Both the position numbers and the translations under genes were made by a program. Under the pieces are notes generated by a model. It did no database searches. It was not told where the DNA came from and worked only from the letters and a program-made list of their open reading frames with translations. A stretch of DNA of 64,000 nt from an uncultured candidate division WWE3 bacterium (GTDB lineage: Bacteria > Patescibacteriota > WWE3 > UBA101185 > UBA10185): NCBI GenBank assembly GCA_938004185.1, contig CALKWN010000065.1:633943-697942 (forward strand). The letters run 5' to 3'. Of this stretch, positions 1,995 through 44,311 are shown in pieces (position 1 is the first letter of the stretch; each line of letters opens with the position of its first letter).

Positions 1995-2996
1995 TTAAAG
2001 CAGGGGAAGTTTCATTTTTTCCCTGACCTCATCCAGGGTCTTTGCTGCCTCTTTTCTAACCTTCTTGGAACCTTCGGAAATAATCTGCATAACAGCATCG
2101 GTGTCCTTTTCATATTGCGATCTTCTCTCTCTTATAGGCTCTAAAAACTTCTCCAAAGCTACTATCAGCTTTTCTTTTACTTCCACATCCCCGACCTTAC
2201 CTGAAACATACCTTTTCTTAAGATCATCAATCTCATCTTTATCCTTGTTAAAAACATCGTGGTAGACAAAAACCGGATTTCCGTCAACCTTGCCCGGATC
2301 TGAAGGATGGAGTCTATTCGGGTCGGTATACATTTTCATTACTTTTTGTTTAACTTCGTCTTTAGTGTCACTCAAGAAAATTACATTTCCCAAGCTTTTA
2401 GTCATTTTCGTGTTACCGTCAGTTCCTACCAGTCTTGCGACTCTACCTATTAAAGCTTCGGGGATCTTAAATACTTCGCCGTAGGTGCTGTTGAATTTGT
2501 GGGCAACTTCTCTAGTAAGTTCAACATGCGGGTTTTGATCTTCTCCGACCGGCACTAAATCGGCCTTCAGACTCAAAATATCCGAGGCCATCATTAGAGG
2601 AAAGTTTAAAAAACCTAACGAATAACTGTCCCCCAATTCTTTTTCTCTTATTTCATCTTTTATTGTCGGGTTTCTTAGAGCTCTGGAAAAAGGAACGAGC
2701 ATTGAAAGCAAAAGCGCAATTTCATAAATTTCAGGTATAGTCGATTCGGCAAAAAAAGTAACTTTCTCGGGGTCGAGTCCGACAGCTAAATTATCCATTG
2801 CCACCTGCATTATTGAATCTGAAACTATATCGGGCTCTCCAACATATTTGGGGTAGGCAAGGGCGTGGGCGTCAGCCAAAATTATAAAAGTATCATAGGA
2901 ATCCTGAAGTTTCACTCTATTTTCAAGTGACCCTACATAGTGGCCCAGATGAAGGCGGCCGGTTGTATTATCCCCGGTTAAAATTCGTTTTTTCAT
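1995..2996 (-). CDS. trpS: Tryptophanyl-tRNA synthetase
   Basis: 333 aa class I aaRS. HIGH-type motif 'TGRLHLGHY' and KMSKS-type motif 'KMTKSLGN'. Size is typical of TrpRS. Confidence 0.85.
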   Translation of the reverse strand: MKKRILTGDNTTGRLHLGHYVGSLENRVKLQDSYDTFIILADAHALAYPKYVGEPDIVSDSIMQVAMDNLAVGLDPEKVTFFAESTIPEIYEIALLLSMLVPFSRALRNPTIKDEIREKELGDSYSLGFLNFPLMMASDILSLKADLVPVGEDQNPHVELTREVAHKFNSTYGEVFKIPEALIGRVARLVGTDGNTKMTKSLGNVIFLSDTKDEVKQKVMKMYTDPNRLHPSDPGKVDGNPVFVYHDVFNKDKDEIDDLKKRYVSGKVGDVEVKEKLIVALEKFLEPIRERRSQYEKDTDAVMQIISEGSKKVRKEAAKTLDEVREKMKLPLL

Positions 2997-3091
2997 AAAA
3001 AATTAATGTATAAAACTAAGAGTTACTAGGATTAATTTAGCACAAAAATATTATCTTTTCTTCAATTAAAGGGAAAAGTCGCCGAAATTTA

Positions 3092-3170
3092 TGGTGCCAA
3101 CACCAGGGATCGAACCTGGGACCTGTCGCTTATGAAACGACCGCTCTTACCGACTGAGCTATGTTGGCAC
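3092..3170 (-). tRNA. tRNA-Met (anticodon CAT)
   Basis: Read on the minus strand: GTGCCAA...GTCGT-TTCATAA-GCGAC...TTCGATC...CCA. Cloverleaf with anticodon loop TTCATAA; CCA is encoded. Confidence 0.8.
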
Positions 3171-3218
3171 GCTTCCGTAAAAGGATTATACAGTCGAATA
3201 AAAATCTCGGAAATATTT

Positions 3219-3291
3219 TGGTTGCGGGGCCTGGACTCGAACCAGGACCCCCGGATTATGAGCCCGGTGAGGTGCCATTCCTCCACCCCGC
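3219..3291 (-). tRNA. tRNA with CAT anticodon (Met/initiator or Ile-lysidine type)
   Basis: Minus strand: GCGGGGT...CCGGG-CTCATAA-TCCGG...GGTTCGAGTCC...CCA. G/C-rich anticodon stem adjacent to the loop is suggestive of an initiator; the class is not resolvable by eye. Confidence 0.65.
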
Positions 3292-3331
3292 GTTAGTACG
3301 GTTAAAAATCTAACAGATTAGGCCGACAATG

Positions 3332-3730
3332 TCAAAAAAACAGCCTGTACCAAAGATACCAGCTGGGGTCACTTTTGTCTTCAGCCGGTTCATTAACTTT
3401 TTCGTCTGCGGCTGACTCGACCTCGCCTCCCTCAATAACATACACTTTTTCACCCGGTTTTATCATGTTTAAGCTGTTGCGAGCGCTTTCTTCCACATAT
3501 TCCGACGTCTTTTTATACTCTATTCTCTTCAAAATCTCATCCCTCTCCAAAAGGAGGGCCTGTTCCTTTTCTTTAGCCTCTTCGAGCCTCCTCTTACTTC
3601 CTAAAACGTCGATTGTTGATTTTATAATATTAGCGGATGTAATAACCAGAATAATTGATAAAAACACCCTTCCCCGGTTGCCTTTTCTAAACATTAAAAA
3701 CATGGTAGTTAAATAATTGACACTTGGCAA
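3332..3730 (-). CDS. Septum formation initiator (FtsB/DivIC-like) cell division protein
   Basis: N-terminal TM segment, coiled-coil stretch 'RRLEEAKEKEQALLLERDEILKRIE', then 'ARNSLNMIKPGEKVYVI', which resembles the FtsB/DivIC C-terminal signature. The true start is probably an internal Met. Confidence 0.55.
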   Translation of the reverse strand: MPSVNYLTTMFLMFRKGNRGRVFLSIILVITSANIIKSTIDVLGSKRRLEEAKEKEQALLLERDEILKRIEYKKTSEYVEESARNSLNMIKPGEKVYVIEGGEVESAADEKVNEPAEDKSDPSWYLWYRLFF

Positions 3731-3824: not shown

Positions 3825-4700
3825 ATGTTAAATCTTGAAATTGCGCATAAAAACTTTATAGAAAAATTAAGAAACGAGGGCAAGTCCGAAGCTACTGTTG
3901 TGGCTTATAGTAAGGACGTTGATCAACTATTAAATCACTTAACCGGAGTTGGTGTTAACCTGGTTAATGAGATTACACTTTCGCACCTGGAGGCTTTCAT
4001 GAAGAAGCTCGAAGACGCGGACTATACAATGAAATCCGTTTCCAGAAAAACCAATGCTACGAGAACTTTCATGAAGTATCTTCACTCCGAAGGTCATATT
4101 ACCGATAATGTTTCTCTTGGATTAAAACATCCCAAACTTGAAAGTAAGGCTCCCAGAATTCTAACTAAAATGGAATACAGAGCTTTAAGAGATGCGACAA
4201 GAAACGATCCAAGAACATACGCAATGATAGAGGTTTTGCTTCAAACAGGAGTGACAATTTCGGAACTTGCTGAAATAAAAACCGAGCACCTCACTATTTC
4301 GGGAACTACCGGAACTCTTTTTGTACCTAAAAAGAACAACAAAGAGGCTAGAACAATACCCCTAAACAAATCCGTCATCGAAGCTATAAACAGATACATG
4401 AACGAAGAAAGATCTATTGTTAAAAGCTCAGGATATTTATTCGTAACCAAAACCGGAAATCCCCTGTTAATAAGAAATATAAGGTCTACTATAGATAGAT
4501 ATTTCAAGGTCGCCGGTGTAGAAAAAGCAAAAGTTAACGATTTAAGACACACTTTTGTCGCGCACCACCTTGCTAACGGAGTAAGCATAATCTATCTTTC
4601 TAAGATTGCAGGACATAAAAGAATTTCAACTACCGAAAGATATCTTCAGTACATCGATAGAGTCGGCGAACAGGAAAAAACTGAACTGGGTATTCTTTAA
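3825..4700 (+). CDS. Tyrosine site-specific recombinase (XerC/XerD-like)
   Basis: 291 aa. C-terminal catalytic box 'HDLRHTFVAHHLANGVSI...GHKRISTTERYLQY' carries the R..H..R..Y residues; SAM-like N-terminal domain. Confidence 0.85.
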   Translation: MLNLEIAHKNFIEKLRNEGKSEATVVAYSKDVDQLLNHLTGVGVNLVNEITLSHLEAFMKKLEDADYTMKSVSRKTNATRTFMKYLHSEGHITDNVSLGLKHPKLESKAPRILTKMEYRALRDATRNDPRTYAMIEVLLQTGVTISELAEIKTEHLTISGTTGTLFVPKKNNKEARTIPLNKSVIEAINRYMNEERSIVKSSGYLFVTKTGNPLLIRNIRSTIDRYFKVAGVEKAKVNDLRHTFVAHHLANGVSIIYLSKIAGHKRISTTERYLQYIDRVGEQEKTELGIL

Positions 4701-4714
4701 GTTGTTATAATCTG

Positions 4715-6001
4715 TTGGTGGGAAGAACGGAAAAAGGTAAAAGAATTTCTAGCTTAATGGGTTTTGTAGATAACTACATAAAAAATCACGACATCAGAAA
4801 AATTGCTGTAAGCATCATCATTTTCGGGCTATCACTTCTAACTTTCATACATCTAACAATAGCGGCTTTCCAGGAAAGATCTCTGGATTTTTACGCTTTT
4901 CTTACAGGAGCAAAAATTCTTGTAGAAAACAAGCAGGAACTATACAACCCATACGTCCAGTATCAAGTACAGGAAGAGCTCTTCAAAGAGGGCTTCGCAT
5001 ATGAGAGAGCTTTTATGGCTTACATTAACCTCCCTTTAAGCGCTGTTCCATACATACCGTTCCTAATAATACCCCCTCACGTATCTGCAGAGCTGGTACA
5101 TTTGGGCACACTTTTGATATTAATTTACTGCATAACAAGACTCTACAAGTTCCACAAAATAAAACCCCTGTCAGGTGTTACTTTAGTTCTCGCTTTCTTC
5201 TACCCGCTGTATTCTTCAATACATTTGGCTCAAATAGGGACATTGATCCTCCTGGTATTAACAGAAATGTATTTAGCTTACATGAAAAGACAAACCACCA
5301 AACTATCTCTTCTGGCTTCACTACTAATACTAAAAATTCAGTATCTCCCAATAGTGGCTTTTATATATGCCATACACCCGGAAAGAAAGAAATATATCTG
5401 TATTGCGGGTCCTCTAACTCTTATTTTTCTTGCCGCCAATTATTTTATTATGGGGCCGGACCTAGTCGCTCAATACATAGCGCTACTGGAGACTTATCAA
5501 ACAGTGCCGGAAAGGTTTGGGATGGCGTACGAAAAAGGCTTAGATATTTACTCAACTCTGCAATATTTTTTCGATGTGTCGGAAAAGATGAAGTTTGTGT
5601 TACCAATTTTTTTGGGAGCACACTTAGCTATGTTTTCATTCATGCGTTCATACAAATTCGATCAAAAAAGAAAAGATCTACTATTCTACTTCATCATACT
5701 TTACAGTTTAATACTGAGCCCCCACACCATGGCTGCTGATTTTGTTTTCCTCATAATACCTATCATCGGCTTGCTTCATAAAACACGATCAAAAGTTTTT
5801 TACGCCATTACAGTATTCGTTCTTAGCCTTTTCTTTTTTTATACAGCCTATGCAACTCAATGGGCACATACAATAATGATATCCATATACGCACTACTCC
5901 TACTCTCCTCAACACTCAAAAAACCCGGAAAAATAGGGAGGTGGGTACAAAACTCAATGGTGGGTGATCCTGGGCTCGAACCAGGAACCGCTCGTGTATA
6001 A
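4715..6001 (+). CDS. Polytopic membrane protein (possible GT-C/DUF2029-like glycosyltransferase)
   Basis: 428 aa with more than 10 predicted TM helices. The last ~14 codons run into the oppositely oriented tRNA-Ile before a stop is reached. The family call is weak. Confidence 0.35.
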   Translation: MVGRTEKGKRISSLMGFVDNYIKNHDIRKIAVSIIIFGLSLLTFIHLTIAAFQERSLDFYAFLTGAKILVENKQELYNPYVQYQVQEELFKEGFAYERAFMAYINLPLSAVPYIPFLIIPPHVSAELVHLGTLLILIYCITRLYKFHKIKPLSGVTLVLAFFYPLYSSIHLAQIGTLILLVLTEMYLAYMKRQTTKLSLLASLLILKIQYLPIVAFIYAIHPERKKYICIAGPLTLIFLAANYFIMGPDLVAQYIALLETYQTVPERFGMAYEKGLDIYSTLQYFFDVSEKMKFVLPIFLGAHLAMFSFMRSYKFDQKRKDLLFYFIILYSLILSPHTMAADFVFLIIPIIGLLHKTRSKVFYAITVFVLSLFFFYTAYATQWAHTIMISIYALLLLSSTLKKPGKIGRWVQNSMVGDPGLEPGTARV

Positions 6002-6033
6002 GACGAGAGCTCTGCCAATTGAGCTAATCACCC
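5958..6033 (-). tRNA. tRNA-Ile (anticodon TAT)
   Basis: Minus strand: GGGTGAT-TA-GCTC-AATTGGC-AGAGC-T-CTCGT-CTTATAC-ACGAG...GGTTCGAGCCC...ATCACCC-A-CCA. The anticodon loop gives UAU. Confidence 0.7.
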
Positions 6034-6061
6034 AAGTAAATAATTTTTTCAAAGTTACTAA

Positions 6062-6215
6062 AATTACACCTAGTACTTCCTTTGAGCCATAGCTCGCTGC
6101 GCTCACTATAGCATCAAACGTAAGATGAATACTTCCTTTGAGCCATAGCTCGCTGCGCTCACTATAGCATCAAACGTAAGACGAGAGCTCTGCCAATTGA
6201 GCTAATCACCCAAAC
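6062..6215. repeat. Tandem ~55-bp duplication plus a 37-nt copy of the tRNA-Ile 5' half
   Basis: The unit 'tacttcctttgagccatagctcgctgcgctcactatagcatcaaacgtaag' occurs twice in tandem. The second copy continues directly into 'acgagagctctgccaattgagctaatcacccaa', which is identical to tRNA-Ile positions -2 to 35. Confidence 0.8.
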
Positions 6216-6275
6216 ATCAAACTAAAAACGACACGCCACTAAACCCGTCCTAACAACAATAAGTACACGTGTAGA

Positions 6276-6617
6276 TTATTCTATTTCATCCGCCAAGTCA
6301 ATTTCCTCTTTCAATGCCGTCTTGTCCTGAATATCCTTGTCTTTTTCAATCATTTGAAGAATTTCCTCGACAGTGTTTATTATAGCGGTCTCAAGATTAT
6401 ACTCGGTGTCATCGCTGAAATACTCTTTGCCTGAAATAACAATGTTAGCCTTAACTTCAAACATTTCGTTGGGAGCTGTGTTCAAAACAATTCGGGCAAA
6501 TTTAGATTCATCGGGAACATTGCCAAACCTCTTCGACACTCTATCAAATTTAGATCTCGCCAAAGCATCCATACTGGGAGACACGGTCATATTGTCTGAA
6601 GTAATTTGATATTTCAT
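6276..6617 (-). CDS. hpf: Ribosome hibernation promoting factor / RaiA family
   Basis: 113 aa. N-terminus 'MKYQITSDNMTVSPSMDALARSKFDRVSKRF' fits the HPF/YfiA pattern 'M.I.ItG.n.evt.al..yv..kl.kl.r'. Confidence 0.65.
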   Translation of the reverse strand: MKYQITSDNMTVSPSMDALARSKFDRVSKRFGNVPDESKFARIVLNTAPNEMFEVKANIVISGKEYFSDDTEYNLETAIINTVEEILQMIEKDKDIQDKTALKEEIDLADEIE

Positions 6618-6669: not shown

Positions 6670-6897
6670 TTACTCCTTAAAATTTAGTACTTCATTAGCA
6701 CGCTCTACCATTTCCTCAATATCCTTGTCGGTAAAACCGTGAGCTTTTGCCCCGGCCTCTAAAGTGTCAAACGAACTTGCCGCACAACCCACACAATGCA
6801 AACCGTAATCAAGCAAGACCTCGATTATTTCGGGGTGCTTATAAATAATCTCGGCAATATTCGATTCTTTTGTAATGATGTCGTTACTTTTTTTCAT
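6670..6897 (-). CDS. DUF1858-type redox disulfide protein (hybrid-cluster-protein-associated family)
   Basis: 'DYGLHCVGCAASSFDTLEAGAKAHG' CxxC motif typical of DUF1858. Start chosen at the internal MKKSND. Confidence 0.5.
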   Translation of the reverse strand: MKKSNDIITKESNIAEIIYKHPEIIEVLLDYGLHCVGCAASSFDTLEAGAKAHGFTDKDIEEMVERANEVLNFKE

Positions 6898-7258
6898 AAT
6901 CTTCAATTGCTTTTTTAACTGCAATAAGAGCCAGAGTCGCACAACCGATCCTACTCGTAGTGAGATTCAAGTTTAACATACCCAGCAAATCCTCTTTAGA
7001 AAAATTTTTGGCTTCTTCCAAAGTTTTTCCGATTAAATGTTCAAGAAGAACTTCCGAAGATACAACGGTAACAAGACAAGCGCTTCCATCAAAACGGGCG
7101 TCTTTAATAACCCCGTCTTCAACTTTTAACTGAACAACAATGTCGTCACCGCACATAGGGTTTTTCTTAGAAGAAGAAACGTCGGCATCCGAAATAGAAC
7201 CCTTTCTAGCCGGGTTTTTAAAAATATCCATGATTTCTTCTTTGTAAAGGTCGTCCAT
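6884..7258 (-). CDS. sufU: Fe-S cluster assembly scaffold SufU/IscU-like
   Basis: 'FKNPARKGSI...NPMCGDDIVVQLKV...ARFDGSACLV' carries the conserved Cys/Asp ligands of the NifU N-terminal domain. Start codon abuts the sufS stop. Confidence 0.8.
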   Translation of the reverse strand: MDDLYKEEIMDIFKNPARKGSISDADVSSSKKNPMCGDDIVVQLKVEDGVIKDARFDGSACLVTVVSSEVLLEHLIGKTLEEAKNFSKEDLLGMLNLNLTTSRIGCATLALIAVKKAIEDYEKK

Positions 7259-7259
7259 G

Positions 7260-8480
7260 TTACGAAAGCATTTTGAGAGCCCTTTCAACACCCTCCGCTA
7301 ACCTGTCTATATCCGATCTTTCATTGTAGATGTAGTAAGACGCCCTCACCGTAGCCGCCAATCCCAGCTCAACATGTAAAGGCATTGCGCAATGGTGCCC
7401 CGACCTCACGGCAACACCGGATGAATTTAACACGGCCGCAATATCGTGGGCATGAACCTTTTCTGAATAAAACGAAACCAAACCCGTCCTTTCCTCTGCA
7501 TTCATCGGACCGATAATTTTTATTCCCTCGATAGAACCTAACTTTTTTAGAGTGTATTCATTCAGTTCAATTTCATGTTTTCTGACATTTTCCATTCCGA
7601 TTGAAGAAAGATAATCGATCGCTGAAGCAAGACCTACAGCACCATCGACGTTAGGAGTACCGGCTTCGAACTTTTCCGGTATTTGTGCCCACGTAGAATT
7701 TTCGTAGGATACTTCGTCAATCATTCCGCCGCCGAATTTATAGGGCGGTGTCCTTTCCATTAATTCTTTTTTCATAAATAAAACACCTATTCCCATCGGG
7801 GCCAGCATTTTATGCCCTGAAAAAGCGTAAAAATCACAACCAAGATTCTGCACATTTACGGGCAGATGAGGAACAGCCTGAGCTCCGTCAATACAAACTA
7901 AAGCTCCGACAGAATGAGCTTCTTTTGTAATTTCCCTGATATCAAGGATTGTCCCCAAAACATTGGAAGCATGTGCTATGCAAACCAACTTCACTTCGGA
8001 GGACAAATATTTTTTAAATTCCGATAGTTCGATTGTTCCCGAATTATCTGTTTTTATGTACTCTAAAACGACGCCGGTTTCTTTGGCCAAAATCTGCCAC
8101 GGAACCATGTTGCTGTGATGTTCAAAACCCGTTAAAAGTATTTTTCCGCCGTTTTTCAGAGCCTCTTTTCCGGCTGAAAATGCAACCAAGTTTATCGACT
8201 CGGTGGTTCCCGATGTAAAAATAATTTCTTCCGGAACAGACGCGTTTATAAACGAGGCAATTTTTTTTCTCGCACCTTCATACAGTTCCGAAGCTTCTTC
8301 ACTTAACGTGTGAATTCCGCGATGAACATTTGAGTTATTCTGCAAGTAATAATTTTTAACCGCATCAATAACCTGCAAAGGTTTTTGAGAAGTCGCGGCG
8401 TTATCTAAATAAACTAACGGGTTTTCGTTAATTTTTCTTTCGAGAATCGGAAAATCTTTTTTAATATCAGAAATAATCAT
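7260..8480 (-). CDS. sufS: Cysteine desulfurase SufS (class V aminotransferase)
   Basis: 406 aa. PLP-lysine region 'FYAFSGHKMLAPMGIGVLF' and active-site Cys region 'RSGHHCAMPL'. Confidence 0.9.
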   Translation of the reverse strand: MIISDIKKDFPILERKINENPLVYLDNAATSQKPLQVIDAVKNYYLQNNSNVHRGIHTLSEEASELYEGARKKIASFINASVPEEIIFTSGTTESINLVAFSAGKEALKNGGKILLTGFEHHSNMVPWQILAKETGVVLEYIKTDNSGTIELSEFKKYLSSEVKLVCIAHASNVLGTILDIREITKEAHSVGALVCIDGAQAVPHLPVNVQNLGCDFYAFSGHKMLAPMGIGVLFMKKELMERTPPYKFGGGMIDEVSYENSTWAQIPEKFEAGTPNVDGAVGLASAIDYLSSIGMENVRKHEIELNEYTLKKLGSIEGIKIIGPMNAEERTGLVSFYSEKVHAHDIAAVLNSSGVAVRSGHHCAMPLHVELGLAATVRASYYIYNERSDIDRLAEGVERALKMLS

Positions 8481-13816: not shown

Positions 13817-13891
13817 TCCCCTGTAGCTCAAGGGTAGAGCGTCCGACTGTTAATCGGCAGGTTGGTGGTTCGAATCCACCCGGGGGAGCCA
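13817..13891 (+). tRNA. tRNA-Asn (anticodon GTT)
   Basis: TCCCCTG-TA-GCTC-AAGGGTA-GAGC-G-TCCGA-CTGTTAA-TCGGC-AGGTT-GGTGG-TTCGAAT-CCACC-CGGGGGA-G-CCA. Confidence 0.85.
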
Positions 13892-40000: not shown

Positions 40001-40075
40001 TGCTCTTTGTATAGCATACAGCAGATTAAATCACAAATAAAACCCAAAACGTGGGGGATCTGATGGAAATTTCTG

Positions 40076-40096
40076 GCGGAGGGAGAGGGGTTCGGT
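40076..40096. repeat. 21-nt copy of the tRNA-Ser(GGA) 3' end
   Basis: 'tggcggagggagaggggttcg' is identical to 40242-40262, the 3' terminus of the tRNA including CCA. It lies 166 bp away in direct orientation. Confidence 0.75.
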
Positions 40097-40203
40097 CACA
40101 TGTCTTTCGTTTGTAGCTCACCATGTTCGCAACATAAGAAAGCATTCGACCCCGCCTCAGTCGCCTTCGGCTCCTTCCGGCATTCTCACCCCACAACCAC
40201 ATC

Positions 40204-40240
40204 AAAAAAATACCCGGCAATAAATGCCGGTACTTTTTTG
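40204..40240. terminator. Bidirectional rho-independent terminator hairpin
   Basis: aaaaaaa-tacccggca-ataaa-tgccgggta-cttttttg. A 6-8-bp GC stem flanked by an A-run and a T-run. Sits directly 3' of tRNA-Ser on the minus strand. Confidence 0.5.
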
Positions 40241-40241
40241 A

Positions 40242-40331
40242 TGGCGGAGGGAGAGGGGTTCGAACCCTCGTGCCGCTTTCGCGACGCGTCGCTTTCCAGG
40301 CGAGCCGATTAGACCACTCTCGCATCCCTCC
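40242..40331 (-). tRNA. tRNA-Ser (anticodon GGA)
   Basis: Minus strand: GGAGGGA...TCGC-CTGGAAA-GCGA, long variable arm CGCGTCGCGAAAGCGGCACG, GAGGG-TTCGAAC-CCCTC, TCCCTCC-G-CCA. Confidence 0.8.
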
Positions 40332-43814: not shown

Positions 43815-43834
43815 TTGGTGGACCGTAGCGGAAT
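43815..43834. repeat. 20-nt copy of the tRNA-Ala 3' end (plus 1 nt of flank)
   Basis: 'ttggtggaccgtagcggaat' is identical to 43968-43987. It lies 153 bp from the tRNA in direct orientation. Confidence 0.75.
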
Positions 43835-43968
43835 AAGAGCTTGCTCGTTCGTTACACTCACTGCGCTTCCTCATACATCCGTCTGCGACGGATGAAGAAC
43901 CACAAAGTAGTTTGACGCGTTAGATCACACAAACAATCGGCTGCTGCCTTTGGCAACATCCGCTTGTT

Positions 43969-44044
43969 TGGTGGACCGTAGCGGAATCGAACCGCTGATC
44001 TCCGCAATGCGAATGCGGCGCTCTACCAACTGAGCTAACGGCCC
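43969..44044 (-). tRNA. tRNA-Ala (anticodon CGC)
   Basis: Minus strand: GGGCCGT (G3:U70 pair present)...CCGCA-TTCGCAT-TGCGG...GCGG-TTCGATT-CCGC-ACGGTCC-A-CCA. Confidence 0.85.
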
Positions 44045-44076: not shown

Positions 44077-44108
44077 CCGAAATTCACTGGCGCACCCGGA
44101 GGGACTCG
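44077..44108. repeat. 32-nt copy of the tRNA-Arg 3' end plus 11 nt of 3' flank
   Basis: 'ccgaaattcactggcgcacccggagggactcg' is identical to 44223-44254. It lies 146 bp away in direct orientation. The intervening segment is unusually GC-rich. Confidence 0.75.
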
Positions 44109-44233
44109 CCTTCCGGTTCGCAACTGCTGTTGCGACCTGCAGGCCGGGCTCGGCGCCGTCGCGCCTGCGCCATTCGAGTCTTCAAGTACACAAAGTAAAT
44201 TTCGTAAGTACCTTCGGCACTTCCGAAATTCAC

Positions 44234-44311
44234 TGGCGCACCCGGAGGGACTCGAACCCCCGACTTCAGCGTCCGCAACGCTGCGTTCTATCCTCTGAAC
44301 TACGGGTGCAC
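44234..44311 (-). tRNA. tRNA-Arg (anticodon GCG)
   Basis: Minus strand: GTGCACC...CAGCG-TTGCGGA-CGCTG...GGGGG-TTCGAGT-CCCTC-CGGGTGCG-CCA. Confidence 0.75.

Follow-up and report, generated by a model that had tools for sequence, protein, structure and literature searches.

The 64-kb window analyzed here, which comes from the chromosome of a bacterium of WWE3 (Katanobacteria, Patescibacteria), contains a gene for tRNA-Ile with a UAU anticodon whose leader is composite: part of the tRNA is duplicated in it, around a small insert. We regard it as about evenly balanced whether this locus is the trace, passed on by vertical descent, of a small insertion through which the displaced 5′ part of tRNA-Ile was restored, resembling a reversed attachment-site (att) duplication for which neither an integrase nor a full-length element was found.

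An old insertion would, on this reading, have entered the anticodon loop of tRNA-Ile after position 34/35. The inserted DNA would have brought an imperfect hairpin of ~39 nt together with an A/T-rich spacer that resembles a leader and a new copy of tRNA positions 1–35, so that the gene was regenerated downstream and the original 5′ half was stranded upstream as a dead copy. The outcome would have the topology of an att duplication, but a miniature one and in the reversed (5′) orientation that is rarely seen. The structure has since been inherited vertically and can be lost precisely through recombination between the 35-nt repeats or through microhomology deletion, and a 56-bp slip duplication has doubled the hairpin in the lineage of the window and is fixed in at least two strains.

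The tRNA-Ile(UAU) locus and its relatives

Coordinates below are those of the 64-kb window, and the parts of the tRNA-Ile locus are given in their order along the minus strand. The stop codon of an HPF/RaiA-like gene (6276) is followed by a native leader of 62 nt (6214–6275, delimited by locus comparison and alignment), a displaced, non-functional copy of tRNA-Ile positions −2 to 35 (6177–6213), the insert, and the intact tRNA-Ile gene (5958–6033). The intact gene encodes its CCA end, is recognized by ARAGORN (anticodon TAT) and by Rfam RF00005 (65.4 bits), and is ~99–100% identical across WWE3 loci. A repeat search finds the displaced copy 100% identical over 37 nt to the equivalent segment of the functional gene (5999–6035, tRNA positions 1–35 plus two upstream bases), and identity stops after A35, within the anticodon. 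The two copies are separated by 141 nt (6036–6176), in agreement with the first-pass annotation of this DNA, which had described a 37-nt copy of positions −2 to 35, an insert of ~142 bp, and the intact tRNA-Ile gene.

The insert consists of a 56-bp tandem duplication (6181–6074) and then a 38-nt A/T-rich spacer (6036–6073). Where a unit of 51–55 bp had initially been described as present twice in tandem, Tandem Repeats Finder (TRF) gives a perfect 56-bp period in 1.9 copies (6074–6181, 100% match). The duplication has the marks of slipped-strand duplication, being head-to-tail, without a spacer, and 100% identical over the 56-bp period. The duplicated unit starts with the last five nucleotides of the half-copy (TCTTA), and a 47-nt core occurs exactly twice in the window (6074–6120 and 6130–6176), where shuffled sequences lead one to expect none. 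Additional copies of the unit, a possibility raised in the first-pass annotation, were not found beyond the tRNA-Ile locus in the 64-kb window that was searched with up to three mismatches.

The tandem duplication doubles a hairpin. Copy 1 (6137–6174, core 6142–6168), delineated by motif scans and the minimum free energy (MFE) structure of the homologue in lineage L013, reads UUUGA-U-GCUAUAG-U-GA-GC-GCA-GC-GA-G-CUAUGGC-UCAAA; copy 2 (6081–6118, core 6086–6112), found by repeat and motif scans, has the same sequence. Each tandem unit contains CTCACTATAG on the plus strand. A T7-type promoter was considered for this sequence and rejected. Only positions −9 to +1 of the −17 to +6 consensus match, and CTCACTATAG corresponds to the 3′ arm of the hairpin as it appears on the plus strand. 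A search for GCGCTCACTATAG allowing up to two mismatches finds nothing outside the two units, and two matches are reached in 11 of 100 shuffled sequences.

The spacer, which abuts the 5′ side of the functional tRNA-Ile gene, is native-leader-like (TTTTAGTAAC-TTTGAAAAA-ATTTAC). Similar sequence is found in the leaders of tRNA-Ile genes that lack an insert and at the right ends of the B-type bodies described below. No match to the sigma-70 consensus is present in the spacer, and neither a sigma-70 promoter nor an intrinsic terminator was found in the insert, for which promoter hexamers proposed by eye were inconsistent between lineages. No conserved open reading frame (ORF) occurs in the 141 nt between the 37-nt repeats, and a small ORF read by eye in the insert was dropped, as no start or frame is conserved across lineages.

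A scan of one genome per species for the tRNA-Ile 5′ half yielded 16 loci, a metagenome scan for the half-copy without the rest of the anticodon yielded 13 more, and protein-guided look-ups gave others. Five other WWE3 lineages (L007, which is the complete genome RAAC2_WWE3_1, and L008, L013, L021, and L028) have the same layout with a single unit: native leader, 35-nt half-copy, CGTTTGAYGCTATAGTGAGC-NNN-GCGAGCTATRGYTCAAAGGAAR, a spacer of ~40 nt, and tRNA-Ile. The spacing of the repeat copies is 118–124 nt in these lineages, as compared to 178 nt in the window. The single unit and shorter spacing in relatives indicate that the second unit in the window is a secondary, lineage-specific duplication. 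This 56-bp duplication is shared by the window and strain L161 and is absent from the other WWE3 lineages compared.

Both occupied and empty sites exist among relatives, as they do for att duplications. Six lineages are occupied, and in two (L005 and L168) the site is cleanly empty, with the native leader meeting the intact tRNA exactly at the point where the half-copy would start. The arrangement is hence neither identical in all relatives nor simply a tRNA promoter region, the two outcomes that the first-pass annotation had named as contradicting its interpretation. In L004, the distal half-copy and the hairpin were removed by a deletion between AGCTCAA in the D-arm and GGCTCAA in the unit, and in L017 (= L172) the insert is further decayed. 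Altogether, the insert is missing or destroyed in four of ten sampled WWE3-like lineages (L005, L168, L004, and L017). The HPF coding sequence of the empty L005 is nearest to that of the filled L028 (90%), and the sequence of the decayed L017 is nearest to that of the filled L021 (84%). This kinship of empty and decayed lineages with filled ones implies that the insert is ancestral and that the empty and degraded states are losses. The state of L005 is the one expected after recombination between the two 35-nt repeats. A further locus, in L012 (CAZTDP010000001, minus strand, ~6680–6790), has the tRNA-Ile leader twice around a run of N that begins 15 nt into the tRNA 5′ copy and is either a scaffold gap or a masked stretch.

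The source of the window is metagenome-derived, and perfect repeats are a classic signature of misassembly, as would arise from strain variants being collapsed into a false tandem or partial duplication. Such an artifact is extremely improbable. The independently assembled strain L161 (GCA_046128295.1), 2% diverged from the window in a comparison of 4.7 kb, has the same structure, including the tandem duplication; six single-nucleotide polymorphisms (SNPs) near the locus all lie within the native leader (6216–6256). The half-copy also occurs in the curated complete genome of L007 (CP006914) and in ~10 other assemblies. Of the Logan contigs (k = 31) from six further sequencing runs, four extend exactly 30 nt into the 37-nt repeat before they end; another breaks off 30 nt into the 56-nt unit, and the remaining one slightly earlier, at 26 nt of the repeat. 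These are the places where a de Bruijn graph must branch, as predicted from the repeats. The feature is real and not ordinary noise.

The divergence between the window and L161 is mosaic, with some blocks ~10% different and one block of ~1.6 kb (window 4600–6216) without any difference. The upstream edge of this block, marked by the last SNP at 6216, is 3 nt from the start of the half-copy, which suggests a recombination tract that ends at tRNA-derived sequence.

Fragment arrays and duplications at other tRNA genes

Nested fragments of the same tRNA occur in the tRNA-Ile(UAU) leader, downstream of HPF, in other Patescibacteria (L002, L006, L010/L025, L014, L027, and L029). In the arrays (L006, ~2870–3390, minus strand; L010, 2330–2980; L014; L027; and L025), fragments comprising tRNA positions 1–13, 15–34, or 1–34 alternate with two families of hairpin-bearing bodies, A and B. 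The pattern in L006, L010, L014, and L027 is fragment 1–13, A body, fragment 15–34, B body, fragment 1–13, A body, an optional fragment 1–34 with B body, and the tRNA. The array of L010 equals that of its close relative L006 plus exactly one unit (a B body and fragment 1–34), and L027 has a 233-nt repeat of the same kind.

The B bodies and the short body of L029 match the WWE3 design in having a junction at 34/35, an immediate hairpin, and CAARGRRAG. Their A/T-rich right end (...AAAAAGATTTACTT...) resembles the leaders of insert-free genes. In the B-type bodies and L029, AAGACG following the hairpin pairs with the fragment end CGUCUU. The old 15–34 fragment of L014 has G28, as does its tRNA, and L006 has A28 in both, while the surrounding bodies have diverged; the matching bases indicate either homogenization or selection for identity. 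The more upstream copies in the arrays decay, as exemplified by GGGTGACTAGCCC in L014.

Within the window, partial self-duplications are found at four of the nine tRNA genes (Ile, Ser, Arg, and Ala). The latter three, all on the minus strand, have a mirror-image layout, consisting of the intact gene, a structured body of 126–147 nt, and an exact repeat of the gene's own 3′ end starting from the T-loop. At tRNA-Ser(GGA) (40074–40262), a 21-nt repeat of positions 56–76 (40242–40262 and 40074–40094) has a spacing of 168 nt, and the 147-nt insert is composed of a terminator and a structured element. The repeat at tRNA-Arg(GCG) (44077–44254) is 32 nt in length (positions 56–76 plus 11 nt of trailer) with a spacing of 146 nt, and that at tRNA-Ala(CGC) (43815–43987) is 20 nt (positions 58–76 plus 1 nt) with a spacing of 153 nt.

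The body at tRNA-Ser has homologues on the downstream side of tRNA-Ile in L029, L002, L006, L010, and L014 (72% identity over 88 nt with the L029 body, E = 2e-10), and bodies of this family end in ...GTGACCG followed by a fragment of their own tRNA. The presence of the Ser-type body at both Ser and Ile means that one body family is associated with different tRNAs. In the related species L179, tRNA-Ser has the element (7128–7332) and tRNA-Ala has no insert. L181 (4821–6082) encodes a 359-amino acid ManC identical to that of L179, yet has 1.2 kb of unrelated DNA after tRNA-Ser(GGA), within which no further tRNA fragment is visible; from L179 and L181, this 3′ end of tRNA-Ser(GGA) is a variable hotspot. 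A tRNA-like fold formed by the 3′-type body and its fragment was considered and discarded, since the pairing is found in Ser but not in Ile and is not conserved.

The same design, in which a tRNA fragment with its break in a loop adjoins a hairpin and the intact gene lies on the other side, is found in several Patescibacteria lineages and for several tRNAs, with breaks in the D-loop, anticodon loop, or T-loop. Because the design recurs, the founding event at tRNA-Ile may have involved a small tRNA-targeting module rather than a chance duplication. More broadly, and as a tentative proposal that we hold to be improbable as a whole, there may be an undescribed class of miniature hairpin-bearing elements in Patescibacteria. 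These elements, ~80–150 nt in length, would insert in tRNA loops (D-loop 13, anticodon 34/35, and T-loop 56–58) with duplication of the segment from the loop to the gene end, such that the tRNA stays intact, and the chimeric modules of tRNA fragment and hairpin would persist, perhaps with a function as RNAs. Insertion could proceed by a new mechanism, involving, for example, recognition of the folded gene or transcript and long, variable target duplications. In the literature that could be searched, no description of the recurrent pattern appears to exist.

A neutral segmental duplication, with neither an element nor a function involved, might also have resulted from replication slippage or illegitimate recombination in a locus that is structured and highly transcribed. 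The perfect 56-bp slip duplication in the window and the 233-nt duplication in L027 are of this type, and the microhomology deletion in L004 and the repeat deletion in L005 point to a recombination-prone locus. However, the insert is no copy of the sequence upstream of the half-copy, homologous bodies occur at different tRNAs with each tRNA's own fragment, and the hairpin is conserved well above its neutral flanks. Neutral duplication is therefore disfavored, and we consider it unlikely.

We give similarly little credence to a third origin, in which an ancestral group I intron at 34/35 was partially replaced, leaving exon 1 and a P1-like 5′ end of the intron upstream. The breakpoint (34/35 to 35/36) does coincide with the usual site of bacterial tRNA group I introns. 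A tRNA-Asn(GUU) group I intron between positions 35 and 36 in sister genomes has the same order of exon end, hairpin, and exon-complementary guide, and the pairing of the exon end with the segment after the hairpin is likewise seen in the B-type bodies and L029. Nevertheless, the bodies have no similarity to WWE3 group I introns beyond 7–9-mers, the U·G pair of the splice site is absent, and the cases at the D-loop (13) and T-loop (56–58) are left unexplained. The Rfam model RF00028 has no match at E ≤ 10 in positions 5900–6300, whereas it scores 90–97 bits on the real introns of L005, L013, and L028. The latter introns are located at ~960–1340 in L028, 161–443 in L005, and 49–394 in L013 (all minus strand), and L005 and L013 have a putative HNH-type endonuclease-like ORF, identified by eye, just upstream of the intron core. 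The tRNA-Asn gene of the window (13817–13891) is intronless.

Conservation of the half-copy and hairpin

Conservation was determined as mean pairwise identity among the six filled WWE3 lineages. The half-copy is 100% identical, a value that is partly ascertained as the search patterns demanded 29 of its 35 bases, and the hairpin region (first 45 nt of the insert) is 91% identical. By comparison, identity is ~100% for the tRNA, 78% for the HPF coding sequence, 63% each for the native leader and the spacer, and 52% for downstream DNA. No lineage was found to have a half-copy with point mutations; where the copy is not perfect, a deletion has removed it.

The 3-nt loop accounts for most differences in the hairpin region. 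The conserved part folds as UUUGA-Y-GCUAUAG-U-GA-GC-NNN-GC-GA-G-CUAURGY-UCAAA, an imperfect hairpin of ~39 nt, and CGTTTGAY and TCAAAGG are both conserved because they belong to this fold. Changes seen in the stem are limited to U-A to U·G and G-C to G·U, with pairing preserved only on the tRNA-sense strand. The basal stem UUUGA/UCAAA becomes UUUUU/AAAAA in L029 and GUCAAC/GUUGAC in the B-type bodies, loci that were found via the tRNA junction and not via the hairpin. A covariation count on 13 hairpins gives 93.6% paired with 25 double changes, but most of these hairpins were picked by a scan requiring pairing and hence do not constitute independent evidence for covariation.

The hairpin tips share a core consisting of GA, 2 bp, a tri- or tetraloop, 2 bp, and GA, with many reading GCGAAGC or GCGNAGC. 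This GA-hairpin motif occurs near tRNA-Ile (−650 to +376) 23 times on the sense strand and not once on the antisense strand, and its density there is 12-fold that elsewhere in the same loci (1.05 vs 0.09 per kb). In the window, six GA-hairpins lie beside tRNAs as compared to 0.82 expected; over the window as a whole, the strict motif is not enriched (14 matches vs 9 in shuffled sequences). Folding, which the first-pass annotation had proposed as a check, bears out a structure for the hairpin region but gives unremarkable z-scores for single units (−1.4 to −1.9). The predicted MFE structure pairs the half-copy with the 3′ half of tRNA-Ile.

The hairpin, and apparently the half-copy too, is constrained. 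Conservation of the hairpin, its strand bias, and its G·U-compatible changes together suggest a role at the RNA level. If the insertion reading holds, the half-copy and hairpin may now be kept by selection, probably in an HPF-tRNA precursor RNA and for its processing, stability, or folding.

It is also possible, though we think it rather improbable, that the locus is first and foremost a functional cis-acting RNA, with the half-copy and hairpin being a selected part of the tRNA precursor or of the HPF 3′ untranslated region and their origin being incidental. One possible role is as a decoy 5′ strand that competes for the tRNA 3′ half and thereby gates RNase P processing, and another is as a protein-binding or stabilizing hairpin. 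Consistent with such a function, identity in the half-copy and hairpin exceeds that in the noncoding flanks and even in the HPF coding sequence, point-mutated half-copies were found in no lineage, the motif is confined to the sense strand, and the stem changes are wobble-compatible. The predicted joining of the half-copy to the tRNA 3′ half, the AAGACG/CGUCUU pairing in B-type bodies and L029, and the concerted change at position 28 of fragment and tRNA in L014 and L006 likewise fit. On the other hand, intact copies are lacking in the four WWE3-like lineages named above, older array copies decay, folding z-scores are unremarkable, and no known RNA family is matched: searches with Rfam, at the gathering threshold for the window and 15 loci and at E ≤ 10 for positions 5900–6300, returned only tRNA, tmRNA, and distant group I introns. 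The conservation, the strand bias, and the wobble-compatible changes argue that the half-copy and hairpin now act as RNA within the HPF-tRNA transcript; any such function is dispensable, since four of ten lineages do without it.

A number of observations weigh against an origin by insertion. Among ~30 loci, no integrase, transposase, ORF, or full-length element lies between the repeats, and the junction is in every locus just 97–233 nt from the intact tRNA. Neither the exact unit nor the general junction pattern has a match in viral contigs, and blastn against phage records gave no match, although mobile elements of the Candidate Phyla Radiation (CPR) are poorly represented there and in viral sets. 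Two looser patterns for 3′-type bodies gave only chance matches in coding DNA in the viral and phage search, and metagenome matches to the junction are all of the same small inserts. The WWE3 hairpin unit occurs only at this locus in the 64 kb, unlike a multicopy mobile repeat. The nested arrays could stem from a few founding events and unequal crossing-over, leaving repeated insertion unproven. Finally, strong conservation of a supposedly dead half-copy, with due regard to its partial ascertainment, is not what a relic would predict.

For the first-pass annotation, which had likened the repeat to those left by anticodon-loop-targeting integrases, the outcome is divided. A tRNA segment ending in the anticodon loop does flank a tiny insert, but no integrase, mobility gene, or full-length element was found in any of the ~30 loci. 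Of the alternatives “remnant or miniature element”, the small size of the insert stands; a merely decaying remnant does not agree with a structure that is old, vertically inherited, and strongly constrained in its hairpin.

Partial copies of tRNA genes are normally read as scars of large elements and used to delimit islands, whereas the scar here encloses ~90–170 nt. It is unusual as well in its rare 5′ orientation, its conservation across a candidate phylum, its occurrence at four of the nine tRNA genes in the window, and its constant abutment to a strand-specific hairpin. Miniature tRNA-targeting elements, if these exist, would constitute, for ultrasmall bacteria and their streamlined genomes, a new type of mobile or recombinogenic DNA, and a selected half-copy and hairpin RNA would be a genome-encoded molecule resembling a tRNA half in bacteria. 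In practice, tRNA annotation and the prediction of islands can be led astray by fragments of this sort, and short-read assemblies systematically break where they occur.

Genomic setting and comparison with known systems

The neighbors of tRNA-Ile in the window are FtsH, TrpRS, two tRNA-Met, a Xer-like recombinase, GT87, HPF, DUF1858, NifU, and SufSDB. The HPF/RaiA-like gene (6276–6617, minus strand; Pfam PF02482, with NCBIfam yfiA below cutoff) lies next to tRNA-Ile(UAU), on its upstream side, in the window and in nearly every related locus that was examined, both in WWE3 and in several further lineages of Patescibacteria. Bacteria rarely have a tRNA-Ile with a UAU anticodon; AUA is apparently decoded here by this tRNA, whose gene is directly downstream of the HPF/RaiA-like gene.

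On the opposite side, an ORF for a GT87-family membrane protein (4715–6001, plus strand; identified by ORF and domain search) runs antisense through tRNA-Ile with its last 44 nt, just as noted in the first-pass annotation for a divergent membrane-protein gene. The TAA stop codon of this ORF is the complement of U33-U34-A35 of tRNA-Ile, and the codons for the C-terminal residues of the protein (GDPGLEPGTARV) lie opposite the T-arm, in antisense. This overlap is kept in L161, L168, L172, and L178; in L007, the GT87 gene is absent altogether.

The Xer-like tyrosine recombinase (3825–4700, plus strand, 291 amino acids, below the XerC and XerD equivalog cutoffs) is 86% identical to its orthologue in L007. 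Its gene is 1.26 kb from tRNA-Ile in the window and 58 nt away in L007 (4270–5145, minus strand). The gene looks like a housekeeping-type xer and is located outside the repeats, which also speaks against a part in an insertion. A dif site for this recombinase was considered because of the 58-nt distance in L007 and was dropped, as hairpins of differing sequence occur several times per locus in other lineages, the window has two tandem hairpin copies, and the GC skew does not switch at this position.

Several known systems share features with the tRNA-Ile locus. As in the split tRNAs of Nanoarchaeota, a stand-alone 5′ half ends at the anticodon and is followed by structured sequence. Here, however, a complete gene lies 88–141 nt downstream, and neither a gene for the 3′ half nor any other tRNA-Ile segment was found within 1.5 kb. 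A bacterium is not expected to have a splicing endonuclease. The position (34/35 to 35/36) and the succession of exon end, hairpin, and exon-complementary segment are those of tRNA group I introns, but there is no catalytic core, no sequence similarity, and no interruption of the working tRNA-Ile gene.

Integration of the Cas1 or casposon type likewise gives a repeat-insert-repeat arrangement, and the duplicated segment of 13–48 nt and the array-like nesting in L006 and L010 are reminiscent of it. The inserts, though, are mutually homologous and ~80–150 nt in length, no cas genes were seen, and the duplication has its outer boundary at the end of the gene, in keeping with selection to keep the tRNA intact and not with a molecular ruler. 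With CIME- and MITE-like elements and REP sequences, the inserts have in common that they are tiny, noncoding, and dominated by an imperfect hairpin, with related bodies at several tRNA genes. They differ from these in that the WWE3 unit is single-copy in 64 kb, terminal inverted repeats and a short fixed target duplication are missing, and the duplicated flank of 13–48 nt always extends from a tRNA loop to the gene end. As for the hairpin itself, d(GCGAAGC), d(GCGNAGC), and d(GCGNNAGC) form extraordinarily stable mini-hairpins (PMC13037366). Several WWE3 lineages have non-GNA triloops (ATC, AAT, and AAC), whereas many tips do read GCGAAGC, GCGCAGC (as in the window), GCGGAGC, or GCGTAAGC.

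The closest parallels are to the att duplications of tyrosine integrases. Partial tRNA genes commonly come from element integration (bioRxiv 10.1101/2022.07.05.498093). It is usually the 3′ part that is duplicated, whereas the tRNA-Ile locus duplicates the 5′ part (positions 1–35); this peculiarity, pointed out in the first-pass annotation, is real, and recombination with the 5′ part of a tRNA gene, in reversed orientation, is documented but infrequent (PMC6563490). The insert is furthermore geneless and only 88 nt in relatives (141 nt here), no integrase or full-length relative was found, the Xer-like gene is outside the repeats, and the tRNA-Ile structure, which has been inherited vertically, is old and in part under purifying selection. 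What the locus shares with att duplications is a direct repeat of a tRNA segment with a boundary in a loop (after A35 in the anticodon loop of tRNA-Ile, and from positions 56–58 in the Ser, Arg, and Ala repeats), one intact and one truncated copy, an inserted side that supplies the missing part of the gene along with leader-like sequence, occupied and empty sites, and precise loss mediated by the repeats.

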